A stretch of DNA of 59,740 nt, filler included, from Nitrospinae bacterium RIFCSPLOWO2_12_FULL_45_22 (GTDB lineage Bacteria; 2-12-FULL-45-22), in the NCBI GenBank assembly GCA_001803565.1. It is 4 parts of 4 records of this genome, joined end to end, with 100 filler letters (N's around TTAATTAATTAA, not from the genome) between each part and the next. Parts side by side here need not be neighbours in the genome. Positions count along the whole stretch, not along the records: positions 52,776 to 59,740 come from MHDQ01000286.1; 3 more parts are not named here. One strand, written 5' to 3'. Shown in pieces: positions 15,806 through 59,740 of this stretch. Both the position numbers and the translations under genes were made by a program. Under the pieces are notes generated by a model. The model worked only from the letters and a program-made list of their open reading frames with translations, did not search any database and was not told where the DNA came from. Position 1 is the stretch's first letter. Every line of letters begins with the position of its first letter.

Positions 15806-15905
15806 NNNNNNNNNNNNNNNNNNNNNNNNNNNNNNNNNNNNNNNNNNNNTTAATTAATTAANNNNNNNNNNNNNNNNNNNNNNNNNNNNNNNNNNNNNNN
15901 NNNNN
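15806..15905. other. Artificial contig linker
   Basis: 100 nt of N with a central TTAATTAATTAA (stops in all six frames). Confidence 0.97.
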
Positions 15906-39547: not shown

Positions 39548-39647
39548 NNNNNNNNNNNNNNNNNNNNNNNNNNNNNNNNNNNNNNNNNNNNTTAATTAAT
39601 TAANNNNNNNNNNNNNNNNNNNNNNNNNNNNNNNNNNNNNNNNNNNN
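39548..39647. other. Artificial contig linker
   Basis: 100 nt of N with TTAATTAATTAA. Confidence 0.97.
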
Positions 39648-52675: not shown

Positions 52676-52775
52676 NNNNNNNNNNNNNNNNNNNNNNNNN
52701 NNNNNNNNNNNNNNNNNNNTTAATTAATTAANNNNNNNNNNNNNNNNNNNNNNNNNNNNNNNNNNNNNNNNNNNN
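52676..52775. other. Artificial contig linker
   Basis: 100 nt of N with TTAATTAATTAA. Confidence 0.97.
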
Positions 52776-52850
52776 TCCCTATCCCTTCATCACCTCTGGC
52801 ATACACTTTTTCGGGTTAAAAGTGTTAAACGAAAAATAAAGGATGCCCAA

Positions 52851-52909
52851 TTTTGTATAAATTTGTATAAAATAAATATGTTCGATTTGGCCACTAGTTA
52901 TGGTATCAT
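52851..52909 (+). promoter_or_regulatory. Putative promoter of the mutase operon with an upstream direct repeat
   Basis: tttgtataa twice at 10-nt spacing (52851-52872), then TTCGAT-N17-TATCAT with a TG extended -10. Confidence 0.35.
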
Positions 52910-53047
52910 AGACTTCGGTCTAAGAAGAAGGTGAGGGATAGGAAATAACCCTTTTGGAGTTTCAAGACAACCTTTCGGCCAAGGGATTCGTTTATAGACA
53001 ATCCTATGCGGTGCATAGGTTGGGTTAATTAAGGGAGGGAGAGAGTA

Positions 53048-54760
53048 ATGTTTTCTAAGGAAACTTTGCAGAAAGACAAGGGCCTGAAAGAAAAGTGGGA
53101 AAAAGCATCTAGCGATATACTCACAGGGCAGAAATTGAATCTGAGAACTAGTTCAGGTATAGAACTCAAACCATTATATACTCCAGAAGATTTAGCTGAA
53201 ATGGATTATTATAAGTTGGGAGTGCCAGGAGAATATCCTTATGTACGAGGCAATTATTCGTTACAATACCAGATAAACCCTTTTATCCAGAATCAATTTT
53301 TTGGGTTCGGTACGCCGAGCGAGACCCGTGGTAGGAGAGACTGGTTAGCCAAACTCGGCTGTAGCTATAAAGTCGGCACTGAAGAACAACTTCCCTTAGT
53401 TATTGCTATGGATTTACCTACCCTTAAGGGGTTGGACCCGGACGAGCCAGAGGCCCGTGGGAGGGTGGGCCATGGCGGGGTATCTATTAGTACTATTGAT
53501 GACATTGGAGTAATAATGGAAGGGCTCCCTCTGGATAAGACATGTGTAATATGGAATGCTTTTGATGGAACATTGCCCATCCATGCCTTATATTTTGCTT
53601 ATGCCCTGGATATTCGTAGGGAGCCATTAGAAAGGCTCTTTATGGCTATCCCTAATAATATAAGTAACCAGTGGGCACATGACTGGGCAGGATTCCCTCA
53701 TAAAACCGCAATAAAACTTGAAATAGAGCTTATTAAGTTTATTATTGATAATTGTCCTACCTCCCTCCATACCGTCATTGAAGGCTATGAAACCGCTGAA
53801 GCAGGTGCTACCCCGGTTCAGGAAGTAGCAGTTATGCTAGCTTATGCTATTTATTTAATGGAAGAATGTATCAAAGCAGGTCTTGATCCAGATGCTGTAG
53901 CACCTGGCCTTTGGGCCCACCATCATCTCAGCCTAAATATCTTTGAAGAGATAGCTAAACTGAGGGCAGCCAGAAAACTATGGGCAAGAATCTTTAAAGA
54001 GAGATTTGGCTGTAACAAACCAGAATCCATTAAGTATAAAATAATAGCCGCCGAAACTGCTGGGATAGAATTAACCGCTTTGGAGCCCTTAAACAATATA
54101 ATACGATTAACTATCATGACTTTGGCAGGAATATTGGGAGGGGTGGAAGGGATTTTTACGGCTGCCTATGATGAGGCGCTAGGTATTCCTACTGAAGAAT
54201 CAGCCCAAGTTGCAGTAAGAACCCAACAGATTTTAGCGGAAGAGACCGATCTCTGCTGGGTTACTGATCCCTTGGGCGGTTCATACTATATAGAATGGCT
54301 CACCAAGAGAATAGAAGAAGAGGTGGTTAATTTATTGGGCAGGATTGAAGAAATGGGCGGTTTCTTAAGAGCCTGCGAATCTGGTTGGATAAGGCGAGAG
54401 ATAGCAAGGAGTGCCAACGAGCGGCAAGAAAAGATTAAGCAGGGGGAGAAGGTAATTATTGGGGTAAATAAATATAGAATAGAACAAAGACCTAAGATTA
54501 AAGGATTCAGGGTACCACTGGAAGTGGAGGAAAGAATAAGAGAGCGGTTAGGAAGGTATAAGAGAGATCGTGATAATAGTAAGATCAAGAGCTCACTCGG
54601 ACAAATTAAAGAGGCGGCAGAGAAAATCGAGAAAGAATGGCCTGAATCCTGTGGGAGCTTGATGCCTGTATTAATAGAGGCCTCCCGTGCCGGGTGTACC
54701 CTGGGAGAGATGCATGGGGTTCTTAGGGAAGTGTTTGGCTATGGTTTTTATTCAGGATAA
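53048..54760 (+). CDS. AdoCbl-dependent acyl-CoA mutase large subunit 1 (MCM family, divergent)
   Basis: SGIELKPLYTP, PGEYPYVRG, DLPT, EEIAKLRAARKLWA, EPLNNIIR, YDEALGIPTE, DPLGGSYYIEWLT, IGVNKY. Confidence 0.92.
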   Translation: MFSKETLQKDKGLKEKWEKASSDILTGQKLNLRTSSGIELKPLYTPEDLAEMDYYKLGVPGEYPYVRGNYSLQYQINPFIQNQFFGFGTPSETRGRRDWLAKLGCSYKVGTEEQLPLVIAMDLPTLKGLDPDEPEARGRVGHGGVSISTIDDIGVIMEGLPLDKTCVIWNAFDGTLPIHALYFAYALDIRREPLERLFMAIPNNISNQWAHDWAGFPHKTAIKLEIELIKFIIDNCPTSLHTVIEGYETAEAGATPVQEVAVMLAYAIYLMEECIKAGLDPDAVAPGLWAHHHLSLNIFEEIAKLRAARKLWARIFKERFGCNKPESIKYKIIAAETAGIELTALEPLNNIIRLTIMTLAGILGGVEGIFTAAYDEALGIPTEESAQVAVRTQQILAEETDLCWVTDPLGGSYYIEWLTKRIEEEVVNLLGRIEEMGGFLRACESGWIRREIARSANERQEKIKQGEKVIIGVNKYRIEQRPKIKGFRVPLEVEERIRERLGRYKRDRDNSKIKSSLGQIKEAAEKIEKEWPESCGSLMPVLIEASRAGCTLGEMHGVLREVFGYGFYSG

Positions 54761-54775
54761 TGGAGTTTAAGGGCC

Positions 54776-55186
54776 ATGGAAGAAGGGGATAGGAAGAAAA
54801 TCAGGGTACTATTAGCTCAAACTCGCCTGGATTCCCATGGTGTAGGCTTACGGTACCTGAGCAGGACCTTGATGGATGAAGGGATGGAGGTAATAATAGT
54901 CCGATATGGCGTTATAGAAGAGGTAGCAAAGGCAGCCTTGGAAGAGAATGTTGATGTTGTCGGATTAAGTTATTATTTTCCTGGGTTTGAGTATGAAATT
55001 CCTCTACTGATGAGGCTGCTGAAGGAAAAGGGTATGGATGATCTAATAATCATTGTGGGCGGTATAATAGATGACGAAGAAGAGGCTAAATTGCTGGAGT
55101 GGGGCGTTAAAGGGGTCTTCACTCCAGGTAGGCCAGTACAGGACGTAATTGAATGTATAATTTCTCATGTTGGAGTCAGGTCTTGA
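54776..55186 (+). CDS. Cobalamin-binding mutase small subunit 1
   Basis: DSHGVG (DxHxxG), GMEVI, VDVVGLS, IVGGII, GVFTPG. Confidence 0.92.
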   Translation: MEEGDRKKIRVLLAQTRLDSHGVGLRYLSRTLMDEGMEVIIVRYGVIEEVAKAALEENVDVVGLSYYFPGFEYEIPLLMRLLKEKGMDDLIIIVGGIIDDEEEAKLLEWGVKGVFTPGRPVQDVIECIISHVGVRS

Positions 55187-55199
55187 TAGGAGGCTAGCA

Positions 55200-55607
55200 A
55201 TGGAAGGAAAGAAAAATATTAGGGTGCTCTTGTCCAAGAGTGACCAGGATGCTCATGAAGTTGGTATAAGGTATGTGGCCAGCTCTCTTAAGGATGCGGG
55301 AATGGAGGTGATTTTCACCAGATACACAATCATAGATGAAGTAGCTGAGACAGCCTTACAAGAAAATGTGGATGTTATAGGATTGAGTTTCTATGGTGCC
55401 GGCTTGAGGTATGATATACCAAGGTTGATGGAACTTTTAAAAGAGAGAAATATAGAGGATACAAGGGTCCTAGTTGGTGGGACAATAACAGAACAAGAAA
55501 AGGCCGAATTGCTGAAGACCGGTATTAGAGGGGTTTTTACTCCAGGCAGCGGTTCAGTACAAGGTATTGTCAACTTTATAACCTCTAACATCTATGGAAC
55601 GGGATAA
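55200..55607 (+). CDS. Cobalamin-binding mutase small subunit 2
   Basis: DAHEVG (DxHxxG), DAGMEVI, VDVIGLS, LVGGTI, GVFTPG; AGGAGG SD before ATG 55200. Confidence 0.92.
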   Translation: MEGKKNIRVLLSKSDQDAHEVGIRYVASSLKDAGMEVIFTRYTIIDEVAETALQENVDVIGLSFYGAGLRYDIPRLMELLKERNIEDTRVLVGGTITEQEKAELLKTGIRGVFTPGSGSVQGIVNFITSNIYGTG

Positions 55608-55673
55608 ACCTTGATTAGATAGCTAAAGATTTACCCAAATTGGGGTGCACTACAAAGAAAAGGAGGATCAGCT

Positions 55674-57383
55674 ATGTTCAGCAAAAAAGTAGAGGATGAG
55701 AACAAGATCATGGAGGAAGAATGGGAAAAGCAATATTCTATAATGATGGATAAGTTGAAAGCCATTAATAGATCAGGCATTGAGCTTAAGCCTTCTTATA
55801 CCCCTACGGATATCCAAGGGATGGACTATAAGGATATAGCACTACCTGGGCAATATCCTTTTACCAGGGGGAATTATCCTTTTCATTATCAGGTCATGCC
55901 CTTGATGATGATGCACGGTTATGGTTTTGGTACTGCAGAGGAGACCCTCATGAGGAGGGAGTGGCTTTCGAGACTGGGGAGTCGCCTGAAGGTGGGCACT
56001 GAAGATGACCTTACAGTGTGTATATTTACCATGGATCTGCCCACCCAGAGGGGCTATGACCCTGATGAACCAGGGGCAAGGGGAAGAGTGGGAGACTGTG
56101 GGATGTCCCTGAGCACCATCAAGGACATGGAGGCGATCTTTGAAGGATTACCTTTGGAGAAGGTTCTTACAACCTTTATTGGATTCGATGCCAGCATGAT
56201 CCTTGTTGCTCTGTATGCAGCTTACTGTAAATATATCAGGAAGGAGCCATTGGATAAATTATACATGCTGTGCTGTAATCTCTTTCATCACCAATGGTTC
56301 TGGGATAGTGCTGCATTTCCCCCTGAGACAGCCATGAAACTGGAGACAGAGTTTGTAAAGTTCATAGTGGAAACCTGCCCCATGTCTTATCCCGGGGTTG
56401 TGGATGGTTACAATGTTGCTGAGGCGGGGGCAACCCCAGTGCAGGAAGCTGCCTTTTCCATTGTCGCTGCAGTGAGTCTAATGGAGGAGTGTGTAAAGGC
56501 AGGTCTTGATCCTGACAAGGTAGCTTCCAGATTTATCGGCCATCCCCATATCAGTCTCAATTTCTTTGAGGAGATAGCAAAGTTAAGGGCCATGAGGAAA
56601 GTATGGGCTAAGATATTAAAAGAGAGGTTTGGCTGTAAAAGGCCCGAATCCCTTCAGCTAAAGTTCCTTGATGCCCAGACAGCGGGCTTTGACCTTACCG
56701 CTCAGGAGCCCCTCAATAACATTATAAGAACTACCATCATGGCCCTGGCAGGCATGCTGGCGGATGTAGAAGGTATGTGGGTTTCCTCCTATGATGAGGC
56801 CCTGGGTATTCCCACTGAAGAAGCAGTCCAGGTAGCTGTCAGGACTTACCAGATCCTCCATGAAGAGACAGACATACCCCATGTTACCGATCCCTTGGGG
56901 GGCTCTTATTATATAGAGTGGCTTACTACCAGGATGGAAGAGGAAATCATGGGGTTAATGAAGAAGATGGAAGACCTGGGAGGATACATGAAGTGCTGGC
57001 AGACGGGCTGGATAAGACAACAGGTGGAGAAAAGTGCCAATGAGAGGCTTAAAAAATTGAATGAAGGAAAGGAAGCAAAGATAGGAGTGAACAAATATAG
57101 GATTGAAGAGGTACCGAAGATGACTGCCTTCAGGGTTCCACCTGAGGTAGAACTCAAGGCTATAGAAAGGGTAAAGAAATACAGGCAGGGGAGGGACAAT
57201 TCCAGGGTTGAATCTGCTCTGGCAAAGGTAAAGGAGGCAGCTATTGCCATAGATAGAGATTGGCCCAGATCCTGTGGAGTACTCATGCCTGCCTTAATTG
57301 AGGCTGCCAGGTGTGAGGCCACTGCCGGGGAGATGCACCGTATCCTTAGAGATATTTTTGGATTTGGCTATTATTCAGGTTAA
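55674..57383 (+). CDS. AdoCbl-dependent acyl-CoA mutase large subunit 2 (paralogue of 53048-54760)
   Basis: PGQYPFTRG, DLPTQRGYD, FFEEIAKLRAMR, QTAG..LTAQEPLNNIIR, SYDEALGIPTE; both paralogues end FG(Y/F)G(F/Y)YSG. Confidence 0.92.
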   Translation: MFSKKVEDENKIMEEEWEKQYSIMMDKLKAINRSGIELKPSYTPTDIQGMDYKDIALPGQYPFTRGNYPFHYQVMPLMMMHGYGFGTAEETLMRREWLSRLGSRLKVGTEDDLTVCIFTMDLPTQRGYDPDEPGARGRVGDCGMSLSTIKDMEAIFEGLPLEKVLTTFIGFDASMILVALYAAYCKYIRKEPLDKLYMLCCNLFHHQWFWDSAAFPPETAMKLETEFVKFIVETCPMSYPGVVDGYNVAEAGATPVQEAAFSIVAAVSLMEECVKAGLDPDKVASRFIGHPHISLNFFEEIAKLRAMRKVWAKILKERFGCKRPESLQLKFLDAQTAGFDLTAQEPLNNIIRTTIMALAGMLADVEGMWVSSYDEALGIPTEEAVQVAVRTYQILHEETDIPHVTDPLGGSYYIEWLTTRMEEEIMGLMKKMEDLGGYMKCWQTGWIRQQVEKSANERLKKLNEGKEAKIGVNKYRIEEVPKMTAFRVPPEVELKAIERVKKYRQGRDNSRVESALAKVKEAAIAIDRDWPRSCGVLMPALIEAARCEATAGEMHRILRDIFGFGYYSG

Positions 57384-57401
57384 CTGCTACGTTGTTATGG
57401 T

Positions 57402-57595
57402 GTAACTATTCAGGCACAAAGAGACAAAGGCACATAGGCACAAAGTTCTAGGAATACGATCGGAATGTAGGACACAACCTATCCAAATACCGTTTTTGTA
57501 AACATCTTATGGGAAGTTAAGCAGCTCATTCTCTTCAGTTCTCTCGACTTTGTGCCTTTGGTGCTCTGTGCCTTTGTGCCTACCTGAATAGTTAC
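57402..57595. mobile_element. MITE-like element K: 13-bp perfect TIR, internal octamer arms, probable 7-8-bp target-site duplication
   Basis: gtaactattcagg ... cctgaatagttac; ggcacaaa gagacaaa ggcacata ggcacaaa / ctttgtgc repeats; flanked by GTTATGGt (57394-57401) and GTTATGGa (57596-57603). Confidence 0.8.
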
Positions 57596-57611
57596 GTTAT
57601 GGAGGTCCTCA

Positions 57612-59740
57612 ATGGAACATAATAGTTTAGAAAACCAGGCTGATGATACCTGGCTACCGAGTATGTGTGGCATGTGTATGAATTCGTGCGGCATACTGGT
57701 TCATCGTATAGATGGGAAGGTAGTAAAGATCGAGGGGAATCCAGAATGTCCCAATAGCCGGGGGCGACTGTGTCCCAAAGGGCAAGCGGGCATGATGCTC
57801 CTTTACGATCCCCACCGCTTAAAAACCCCGATGAAGCGGACAAACCCGCAAAAGGGTATTGGTATAGACCCTCAGTGGGTAGAGATCAGTTGGGAAGAGG
57901 CCCTTGATACCATAGCAGAGAAGCTCAAGCAGATAAGGAGCGAAGACCCCAGAAAAGTCATTTATGCCTATAATGTTTGTAATATCGCTAAGACTTTCTT
58001 TACTATGGCCTGGGCGGGGGCCTTTGGTACCCTAAACACTTATACCTCCGCTGGAATCCATTGTGGTATGCCGGGCCACCTATTCCGGGGATTAATGAGC
58101 GGTTCATGGTGGCATACTCCGGACTACAAATTTACCAACTATTTAATATCGGTAGGGTCAGGCGATGGCACTCATTCAGGGTATGCCTTTACTTCTTTTG
58201 CACAACAATTTGCCGAGGCCAGGGCGAGGGGGATGAAGGTTATTGCCTTTGATCCATTATTGAGCCCTACCGCGGAAAAGGCCGATGAATGGGTACCAGT
58301 GAGGCCCGGTACCGATGGGGCATGGGCATTGGCCATGCTCAATGTAATCCTGAATGAGTTGGGTCAGTACGATAAAAAATATATCAAAGAACATACTAAC
58401 GGCCCCTACCTGATCGGACCAGATGGCCATTATGTGAGAGACAAACAGACTAATAAACCAATGGTGTGGGACTTAACGGAAGAGTGTGCTAAGCCTTTTG
58501 ATGACCCCAACATAAGCGATTATGCCATTTTGGGTTCTTATAATGTCAATGGAGTAATATCTAAACCGGGCTTCCAGTTATTGAAAGACTGGGTCAAGAA
58601 GTATACCCCAGAGGAAGCAGAAAAGATAACTACTATACCAGCCAATACCATACGCCGCATAGCCAGCGAATATGTGAATGCTGCTAGGATAGGAAGCACT
58701 ATAGTTATTGATGGTCATGAGCTACCTTATAGGCCCGCCTGTGTCCGAACATTCAAAGGACCAGACGGCCATAAGCACGCCACCCTTTCCGCCATGGCCT
58801 TAGAACTCTTAAACGAAGTTGTAGGGAATCCGGGTGCCGTAGGAGGCATCCTGGGAAATGCCTCCCGATGGTTCGGCTATCCTCAAACCAGTTTGCCTGC
58901 CTGGGANNNNNNNNNNNNNNNNNNNNNNNNNNNNNNNNNNNNNNNNNNNCTTAAGCGAGTTTTTCCCTTACCTGGGGATGTCGTGGATAACCCCCATAGT
59001 CGTTGGAGAAGAGGAAAAGTGGGGGATACCCTACCAGGCAGAGATGCTCATTAACGGTGGTACTAACATAGCCATGGCCTTAGGAAATCCGGGGACAATG
59101 GTCGAGGCCTTCAAGAAAATACCCTTCATTGTACATTTCGCCTTGCACCTGGATGAATCAGCCGAGGCCTTTGCTGATATAGTTTTGCCCGATACCTGTT
59201 ACCTGGAAGAGCTTATGTATCTCCCTTATACCTGGGTTATGGGCGGGATGTGTACCGGGGGAATGGCAGAACCGGATTGGGGACTTTATATAAGACAACC
59301 CATAGTAGACCCACCACCCGGTATCATGTCCCAGGCAGTCGTATTAATGGATCTGGCAGAGAGAGTCGGGTTTCTGCCGGATTTGTACGCATTAATAAAT
59401 ATCTTCCTGGGGCTTAAGGAACCTTATACCCTCAACCCTGAGAGAGAATATACCATTGAAGATATAGTGGATAGACAGTGCAAGAGCCTTTTCGGTGAGC
59501 AGCATGGCCTGGACTGGTTCAGGAAGCATGGAGTGATGTCATGGCCTAAAAAGGTGGAAGAGATTTATTGGAAGAATTTTATCAAGGTGCGGGTGCCTAT
59601 TTACTTCGAGAATATATTGACCATAGGCCATCAGATAAAAAAGACAGCGGAAGATTTGGGCTGGCAATGGGATACCTCGGACCATCAACCCTTACCGGAT
59701 TGGAAGCCCTGTCCTTCCTACCTATTAAAAGACCCGGGAT
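57612..59740 (+). CDS. Molybdopterin (bis-PGD) oxidoreductase catalytic subunit, DMSO-reductase family; spans the gap and runs off the window
   Basis: CGMCMNSC...CPKG [4Fe-4S] motif, HRLKTPMKRTNP, ISWEEALD, ADEWVPVRPGTDGA; after the gap the frame from 58951 gives FADIVLPDTCYLE; no twin-arginine signal. Confidence 0.9.
58907..58949. other. Scaffold gap within the molybdoenzyme gene
   Basis: 43 N with no linker motif; coding continues in another frame after the gap. Confidence 0.9.

Follow-up and report, generated by a model that had tools for sequence, protein, structure and literature searches.

We have analysed a window of 59,740 nucleotides from Nitrospinae bacterium RIFCSPLOWO2_12_FULL_45_22 (assembly GCA_001803565.1; "the window" is this whole stretch of DNA), in which four closely packed genes on one strand, arranged in the mirror order large-small-small-large, encode proteins of the acyl-coenzyme A (acyl-CoA) mutase superfamily. 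Our analysis suggests that the locus probably encodes two separate two-subunit, adenosylcobalamin (AdoCbl)-dependent mutases of the acyl-CoA family, L1 with S1 and S2 with L2, whose specificities would be new and would differ from each other. As judged from their sequences, they would differ from all studied mutases in that the carboxylate clamp Tyr89/Arg207 and His244 of methylmalonyl-CoA mutase (MCM) are gone and most of the polar residues that line the CoA channel have been exchanged. Since the substrate pockets are rebuilt in this way, L1 and L2 probably rearrange compounds that are handled by no studied mutase. The four genes are the following.

53048..54760, plus strand: L1, acyl-CoA-mutase-type large subunit, 570 aa (PF01642, TIGR00641).
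54776..55186, plus strand: S1, B12-binding small subunit and partner of L1, 136 aa with a DSHGVG motif (PF02310, TIGR00640).
55200..55607, plus strand: S2, B12-binding small subunit and partner of L2, 135 aa with a DAHEVG motif (PF02310, TIGR00640).
55674..57383, plus strand: L2, acyl-CoA-mutase-type large subunit, 569 aa (PF01642, TIGR00641).

L1 and L2 belong to the acyl-CoA mutase superfamily by fold, by cofactor subunit and by their cofactor-side residues. PF01642 aligns along the whole domain without large deletions (L1, E = 3.1e-140, residues 33-564 on profile positions 1-512 of 512; L2, E = 7.4e-136, the whole 512-position model). PF02310 matches both S1 and S2, and the two small subunits score 93.0 and 91.7 bits, respectively, with TIGR00640, for which the cut-off is 57.45. 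The large subunits are 56% identical to each other (318/571) and the small subunits 52% (66/128). A preliminary description of this DNA had spoken of two paralogous large and two DxHxxG small subunits in tandem, and the Pfam matches and the motifs DSHGVG and DAHEVG bear this out. The motifs it had read in copy 1 and copy 2 (FIQNQFFGF/LMMMHGYGF, PNNISNQW/CNLFHHQW, GYETAEAG/GYNVAEAG and GIFTAAYDE/GMWVSSYDE) are likewise all present in the translations. The ATG of L1 is preceded by a GGGAGGGAG ribosome site. For S2, a longer open reading frame (55167-55607, 146 aa) overlaps S1; its start is most likely the ATG at 55200, because this ATG has a strong GATAGGAGG ribosome site, gives an N-terminus parallel to that of S1 and removes the overlap. 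The large-small-small-large order is not an assembly artefact, since single contigs of two other public sequencing runs, one of which may be the source sample, span the locus (53495-57447, 3,953 bp with 4 differences; 53708-57430, 3,723 bp with 10 differences).

With the general domain model TIGR00641, L1 and L2 score 431.1 and 407.8 bits (cut-off 303.8). Both stay below the cut-offs of the MCM equivalog NF006944 (356.5 and 339.2 bits, cut-off 876), of the equivalog NF045497 for IcmF, the fused form of isobutyryl-CoA mutase (ICM) (166.7 and 146.2 bits, cut-off 1500), and of TIGR00642 for the inactive beta subunit MutA (173.9 and 161.5 bits, cut-off 617.25). The closest solved structures are those of 2-hydroxyisobutyryl-CoA mutase (HCM, 4R3U; E = 3.9e-85 and 6.6e-91 for the two large subunits) and of human MCM. 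An AlphaFold2 model of L1 made from 25 sequences (predicted local distance difference test score 74.4, predicted template-modelling score (pTM) 0.76) is weak at residues 56-83, 106-115 and 373-381. It matches the catalytic alpha chains of MCM and HCM with template-modelling (TM) scores of 0.76-0.78 (E ~1e-33), and the inactive beta chains with 0.53-0.58 (E ~1e-15). The model of L2 in the ESM Atlas has a pTM of 0.90; the Atlas itself returned generic mutase clusters only.

Comparison with the characterised mutases shows what L1 and L2 share with each of them and what they do not. HcmAB of Aquincola tertiaricarbonis (4R3U) is likewise split into a large subunit and a separate B12-binding small subunit of ~135 aa, and has the same fold as the L1 model (TM score 0.78 by query and 0.80 by target, ~31% identity), but it falls in another clade and has Ile89, Asp116 and His244 where L1 and L2 have Phe/Gly, Ala/Thr and Glu/Asn. 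The MCMs of Propionibacterium shermanii (1REQ), human (2XIJ) and E. coli (ScpA) are of the same domain family and fold, and their Asp369/Glu370, Tyr243, Asp118 and DxHxxG are kept in the L1/L2 pairs; however, Tyr89, Arg207, His244, Gln197 and Asn366 are replaced together with most channel residues, and the B12 domain is here a separate protein. ICM, IcmF and the pivalyl-CoA-converting variants also lack the carboxylate clamp. Phe at 89, Gln at 207 and a retained His244 are what we take to be the ICM signature, of which L1 shares Phe89 only. The ICM-like paralogue of the source genome (own_C220) has Phe89/Gln207/His244, whereas L1 has Phe/His/Glu and L2 has Gly/Trp/Asn, and the fused G-protein of IcmF is absent from both. 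The reference for ethylmalonyl-CoA mutase (ECM), the Ruegeria 'protein meaA', keeps Tyr89, Arg207 and His244, all of which are replaced in L1 and L2. As for MutA, its structural match to L1 is as weak as its score, and each of L1 and L2 has its own DxHxxG small subunit. In these comparisons none of the references was an ICM or a pivalyl-CoA mutase (PCM) of proven function, ICM being represented by the ICM-like paralogue, and an ECM assignment is judged by residues and not by the tree, in which the single Ruegeria MeaA served as outgroup. L1 and L2 lack the residue sets that mark MCM, ICM, HCM and ECM, and His244 among them, and are members of an unstudied acyl-CoA mutase clade.

The pocket residues were mapped onto the numbering of P. 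shermanii MCM, which is the chain index plus 1 (index 243 is His244, and Arg207 likewise). The mapping is anchored by the structures of the wild type (1req_A) and of the Y89F mutant (5req_A), which differ exactly at the column of Gly82 of L2. Tyr89 and His244 are important for the specificity and catalysis of MCM, and Asp369/Glu370 and Tyr243 are residues on the cofactor side; the Y89F and H244A mutants of MCM were made and studied, as the titles of entries in the Protein Data Bank (PDB) tell. In the column of Tyr89 we find Phe84 in L1 and Gly82 in L2, in that of Arg207 His211 and Trp210, and in that of His244 Glu248 and Asn247. Gln197 is replaced by Pro202 in L1; in L2 its place is taken by Cys201 in the MAFFT alignment or by Cys200 in the ungapped phmmer alignment to 1req_A, the register being uncertain by one residue. 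Further replacements in L1 and L2, respectively, are His291 and His290 for Phe287, Ala372 and Ser for Asn366, and Phe and Trp369 for His364, and position 116 holds Ala120 and Thr119. Gln330 becomes Glu336 in L1 and is kept in L2 as Gln335, and L2 has in addition His71 for Met78 and Cys142 for Ala139. The cofactor side is preserved (Asp375/Glu376/Tyr247 in L1 and Asp374/Glu375/Tyr246 in L2 for Asp369/Glu370/Tyr243), and so is Asp118 in both. Of the small polar residues that 28 canonical MCMs share without exception in the channel, L1 and L2 have lost nearly all. That the two pockets differ from each other, as had been proposed before, is true at most pocket positions. One might think of His71, Cys142, Cys201 and His290 of L2 as a Cys2His2 metal site, but we mention this as a thought only.

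The relationships of L1 and L2 were examined in a tree (MAFFT in fast mode and FastTree; 159 sequences, 534 columns) that was rooted arbitrarily on the single MeaA. Its input comprised search matches, the paralogues in the source genome and in three other genomes, E. coli ScpA, Ruegeria MeaA and a Roseovarius mutase; sequences below 500 aa were left out, as were four duplicates of L1/L2. L1-type (n = 5, support 0.986) and L2-type sequences (n = 24, support 0.776) are sister orthogroups, which together (n = 30) have a support of 1.0. They lie within a larger clade of 97 sequences, again with a support of 1.0, which excludes every canonical MCM as well as the ICM-like and HCM-like paralogues. 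The suggestion that neither copy is an MCM is supported by the scores below the MCM cut-off, the replacement of Tyr89, Arg207 and His244, and the separate clade, and a check of the tree for clustering with the canonical MCM, ICM-like or HCM-like paralogues found none.

Of the 32 tabulated positions, 25 show no variation among the 28 canonical MCMs and 7 show slight variation, and His244 is present in 28/28. The clade of 97 was sampled as the best matches to L1 plus chosen genomes, so that its fractions are not those of the whole family: Glu370 occurs in 97/97, Asp369 and Asp118 in 96/97 each and Tyr243 in 91/97, and His244 is found in 0/97, the commonest residues in its place being Asn (59), Asp (7) and Val, Ser and Gly (5 each). 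As all 97 lack His244 and all 97 keep Glu370, the loss of His244 is a property of a maintained family and not a sign of decay. At position 287 the clade has His in 83 and Gln in 12 sequences. In the whole tree, histidine never occurs at both 244 and 287; 84 sequences have His287 only, 39 have His244 only and 36 have neither. This mutual exclusion would fit a histidine that has shifted to the neighbouring strand.

The other pocket and channel positions are highly variable between subclades but conserved within the L1 and L2 orthogroups, which include genomes of another phylum (G425 and G406). All five L1-type sequences have Phe89, Gly139, Asn166, Phe168, His287, Glu330, Phe364 and Ala366. Among the 24 of the L2 type, His287 and Gln330 occur in all, His78, Ile166 and Asn244 in 23 each, Cys139 and Cys197 in 22 each, Trp364 in 20 and Gly89 in 19. 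Variation between subclades together with conservation within orthogroups is what one would look for in functional enzymes whose specificities have diverged.

Genes of the L1/L2 family are rare: with a threshold of E <= 1e-130, 1/401 genomes sampled across the domain had the family, namely the source genome itself, and so did 10/401 genomes of the phylum of genome G203. A QrcB-positive genome was used as a second search centre, and G425 belongs to its phylum. In a search of 5.8 billion clustered proteins, ~90 of the best 120 matches are metagenomic proteins of 38-86% identity, the few named organisms among these 120 are Thermodesulfobacteriota or Syntropharchaeia, and canonical archaeal MCMs join the list from ~44% identity down. 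One relative, P0006, is 86% identical and lies on a 245-kb contig; among other close relatives, P0014 and P0017 share a 9-kb contig, and P0028 is on one of 27.8 kb. The top representative in a library of 1.84 billion representatives of clusters at 50% identity is only 47% identical to L1. A scan of genome contigs with L1 gave only 7 loci, all distant (35-39% identity), and a scan of metagenome contigs, with an alignment of 25 sequences and the generic pattern DPLGGSY[YF][IV], gave 80 relatives of 35-46% identity, none of them close. Nearly identical copies of the locus occur in 20 DNA runs, which come from 16 studies and cover groundwater, soil and sediment. In the open-access library searched, we found no paper on a His244-less mutase clade or on large mutase expansions; to our knowledge, only about half a dozen acyl-CoA mutase specificities have been studied, all of them with His244.

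How the two enzymes would work is suggested by homology with MCM and HCM. The small subunit would bind AdoCbl in the base-off/His-on form through its DxHxxG motif, and the barrel of the large subunit would hold the acyl thioester. Homolysis of the Co-C bond would then give an adenosyl radical that abstracts a hydrogen from the substrate, and the thioester-bearing carbon would shift onto the neighbouring carbon. The histidine at 287, which is fixed in L1 and L2, may replace His244. Most likely both enzymes would take part in anaerobic breakdown of organic acids, with different substrates, either in parallel or in sequence. Acyl-CoA is the likely class of substrate, since members of the clade in genome G516 share operons with CoA ligases: of its four clade members, the surroundings of two were read, and the operons of both include CoA ligases (PaaK-like or AMP-binding), solute-binding proteins and regulators of the TetR or LuxR kind; one of the two members also adjoins acyl-CoA dehydrogenases, a thiolase and a carboxyltransferase. 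Guessing from residue chemistry, the gain of Glu248 and Glu336 in the pocket of L1 suggests a polar or hydroxylated acyl group. By the same kind of guess, Gly at 89, which leaves room, and a pocket rich in Cys, His and Trp suggest a bulky, non-carboxylated acyl group for L2.

Several points weigh against two active acyl-CoA mutases of this kind. His244, which is missing, is reported to be catalytically important in MCM. The idea of a relocated histidine rests mostly on one ancestral change and on one case outside the clade (G516_C5), and 36/159 sequences have histidine at neither position. In L1/L2, Thr77 is changed to Leu/Phe, Thr85 to Ile/Met and Ser285 to Trp/Ile, and Arg82 and Arg87 are lost; these columns presumably line the CoA (pantetheine) channel of MCM, and a channel rebuilt in this way would fit a reshaped path for CoA and equally a substrate other than a CoA thioester. 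No CoA ligase or transferase adjoins the L1-type or L2-type genes, but the contigs that carry them are short. Two of the weak stretches of the L1 model, 56-83 and 373-381, include pocket residues, and there is no RNA run among the 21 runs listed for the locus.

Whether L1 and L2 act together bears on how the locus is read. The preliminary description had raised the possibility of a heteromer; its other suggestions, two successive rearrangements and a bulky, branched or aromatic acyl substrate, are conjectural. In a heteromer, L1 and L2 would combine like the alpha and beta chains of Propionibacterium MCM, with one active and one structural subunit or with two sites acting on one pathway intermediate. 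The tight mirror order on one strand would suit such an assembly, both orthogroups co-occur in the two genomes that have the L1 type (the source genome and G425), and tandem mutase pairs are common in G516. However, G425 has the two types on separate contigs, each large subunit being followed by its own small subunit: there is one L1-type gene, on C48 (in the order UbiD, divergent, then large and small), and there are L2-type genes on C98, C38 and C54, the one on C98 (large, then small) facing two Mo hydroxylase genes of the xanthine-dehydrogenase family and a DUF1329/LolA-like gene. S1 is 72% identical to the L1-type small subunit on C48 and 53% to the L2-type one on C98, and S2 is 62% identical to the latter and 51% to the former, so each small subunit tracks its own large subunit. 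Genome G406, which is 84% complete, has only an L2-type gene, with a DUF1329 gene directly after it. In addition, the cofactor-side residues and a conserved pocket are present in L1 as well as in L2, and both proteins resemble alpha and not beta chains. Because of the small-subunit matches and the separate contigs of G425, L1-S1 and S2-L2 are pairs able to exist apart. We therefore favour two separate two-subunit enzymes, which would be compatible with a shared pathway, and consider the heteromer unlikely.

The other alternatives concern the substrate and the activity. That the substrates are free acids or other carrier-bound compounds rather than CoA thioesters would agree with the replaced polar channel residues and with the neighbours of L1/L2-type genes, which are Mo/W enzymes, UbiD and DUF1329 proteins and not CoA ligases. 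These L1/L2-type contexts are nevertheless too short to judge, PF01642 aligns without large deletions, and the CoA-ligase operons of the two G516 members, one with its acyl-CoA dehydrogenases, thiolase and carboxyltransferase, point the other way, so that we regard this substrate class as somewhat less probable still than the heteromer. One could also suppose that L1, L2 or both have become dead relics or serve as regulatory binders of B12, given the loss of His244, Tyr89 and Arg207, of which the first two are important for catalysis in MCM and are named as mutants in PDB titles. Yet the reading frames are intact, the pockets are conserved within orthogroups across phyla, and Asp369/Glu370 and DxHxxG are kept; of the 18 population variants listed for the L1, S1, S2 and L2 genes, 13 are synonymous, and the other 5 are conservative changes that fall outside the tabulated pocket positions. 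A dead copy, which the preliminary description had named as a case that would overturn its proposal, is hence improbable, also in view of the alpha-like fold and the retained Tyr243. Least of all do we expect L1 and L2 to be a divergent-looking but ordinary MCM, ICM/IcmF, HCM, ECM or PCM, which would be very surprising: the closest solved structures are indeed HCM and MCM, and L1 has Phe at 89 like ICM, but every equivalog cut-off is missed, the clade is separate with a support of 1.0, the HCM markers of 4r3u (Ile89, Asp116, His244) are absent, and L1 and L2 are without all three of the residues Tyr89, Arg207 and His244 of the MeaA reference.

The surroundings of the two mutases are known over a short distance. 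The window consists of four contigs of a metagenome-assembled genome (C278, C284, C285 and C286) that are chained by runs of N, and the mutase locus lies on C286 (6,965 bp, positions 52776-59740). Because C286 ends there, its true context is 272 bp upstream and one gene downstream. The remaining features are given below.

15806-15905, 39548-39647 and 52676-52775: runs of N between the parts; genes across a run are not neighbours.
52776..53047, no strand: contig start and upstream region, 272 bp, ending at the contig edge (from the contig map).
57402..57596, no strand: element like a miniature inverted-repeat transposable element (MITE), ~195 bp with terminal inverted repeats of ~40 nt, between L2 and the molybdenum/tungsten (Mo/W) enzyme gene.
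57612..58906, plus strand: PsrA/PhsA-like catalytic subunit of a Mo/W-bis(pyranopterin guanine dinucleotide) enzyme, N-terminal 431 aa; it continues after the gap to the contig end at 59740.
58907-58949: scaffold gap inside C286.

The genes for GroEL/GroES, a heptosyltransferase and a CinA-like protein are ruled out as neighbours, as they are all on C285. Rfam gave no riboswitch at the locus, and promoter-like and terminator-like sites there were not above the shuffled expectation. It had also been remarked that no meaB or epimerase is adjacent. This carries no weight, since C286 is only ~7 kb long, and the source genome (3.67 Mb, 321 contigs, 85% complete) does encode one MeaB, on C153 away from the locus, and two PduO-type adenosyltransferases elsewhere. 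Its order and its phylum in GTDB hold only two genomes each.

The MITE-like element is not part of the enzyme system. A further copy is found on C50 (85% identity over 195 bp), and its arms alone are on C242 and C83. The DNA has a predicted fold of -36.2 kcal/mol, is read at 2-4x the neighbouring depth with several loose ends, and in two other runs its inner 101 bp are swapped for 30-36 nt. That the Mo/W gene beyond it follows L2 is supported by a contig of run X3 and by a joint in run X11, both of which connect the two genes. The top solved relative of the Mo/W protein is 2vpw_A (E = 6.7e-40). The Mo/W protein has an N-terminal Fe4S4 motif and, because there is no twin-arginine signal, the enzyme is probably cytoplasmic. 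Its population variants, mostly non-synonymous, cluster at residues 279-302. Mo enzymes of three different families are near L2-type genes in three places. This proximity may be due to chance, and a functional link between the Mo/W gene and the mutases is putative. L2-type genes also adjoin DUF1329/LolA-like lipoprotein genes in two genomes (G425 on C98 and G406 on C99).

Beyond the locus, the source genome has 13 PF01642 matches on 11 contigs, including L1, L2, the two halves of one gap-split gene and one short fragment; by signature the paralogues are a canonical MCM, an ICM-like and an HCM-like mutase and several more types without His244. On C318 (L127:4782-14604) a His244-less mutase pair (Val243/Asn244) stands beside an 847-aa glycyl-radical enzyme, together with two genes like radical S-adenosylmethionine (SAM) activases, two HGD-D-type genes and ferredoxins, a layout that recalls pathways of fumarate addition followed by skeleton rearrangement. 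On C85 (L128) an Arg243/Asn244 mutase pair is beside a doubled family-III CoA transferase, a second CoA transferase and an old-yellow-enzyme homologue, and on C300 (L125) a clade member whose sequence is interrupted by a short N gap is beside a B12-binding radical-SAM protein and a short-chain dehydrogenase. Expansions also occur elsewhere. Genome G516 (3.1 Mb, 100% complete) contains 29 matches to PF01642, several of which form tandem large-small-large-small arrays, and G007, from the sample across the domain, has 22. Five loci of G516 that were read (among L155-L179) lie in islands where CoA ligases and acyl-CoA dehydrogenases accompany TetR regulators and solute-binding proteins, and seven other sampled genomes of its family have 19-35 mutase candidates at first look.

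A bolder reading, which we hold as a tentative and rather unlikely one, is that the His244-less, His287 clade carries out rearrangements outside the known set, and that the locus would encode two different reactions of this sort within a single pathway of anaerobic degradation, in which the cytoplasmic Mo/W enzyme encoded alongside might also take part. Examples could be the contraction or expansion of a ring, or a shift at a quaternary carbon in an alicyclic, isoprenoid-like or aromatic-derived acyl group, with the relocated histidine or Glu/Asn244 acting as acid-base.

The maintained and diversified His244-less clade, together with genomes that have 13-29 mutase matches, suggests a large and as yet untapped repertoire of radical rearrangements, which would let anaerobes bypass branched or otherwise blocked carbon skeletons. 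L1 and L2 are a compact test case for it, with two sister pockets, both intact, and a cofactor subunit for each. Once known, their substrates would extend B12 enzymology and could explain steps in the anaerobic decay of recalcitrant organic matter in groundwater and soil, and the two enzymes would supply new catalysts for pathway design.

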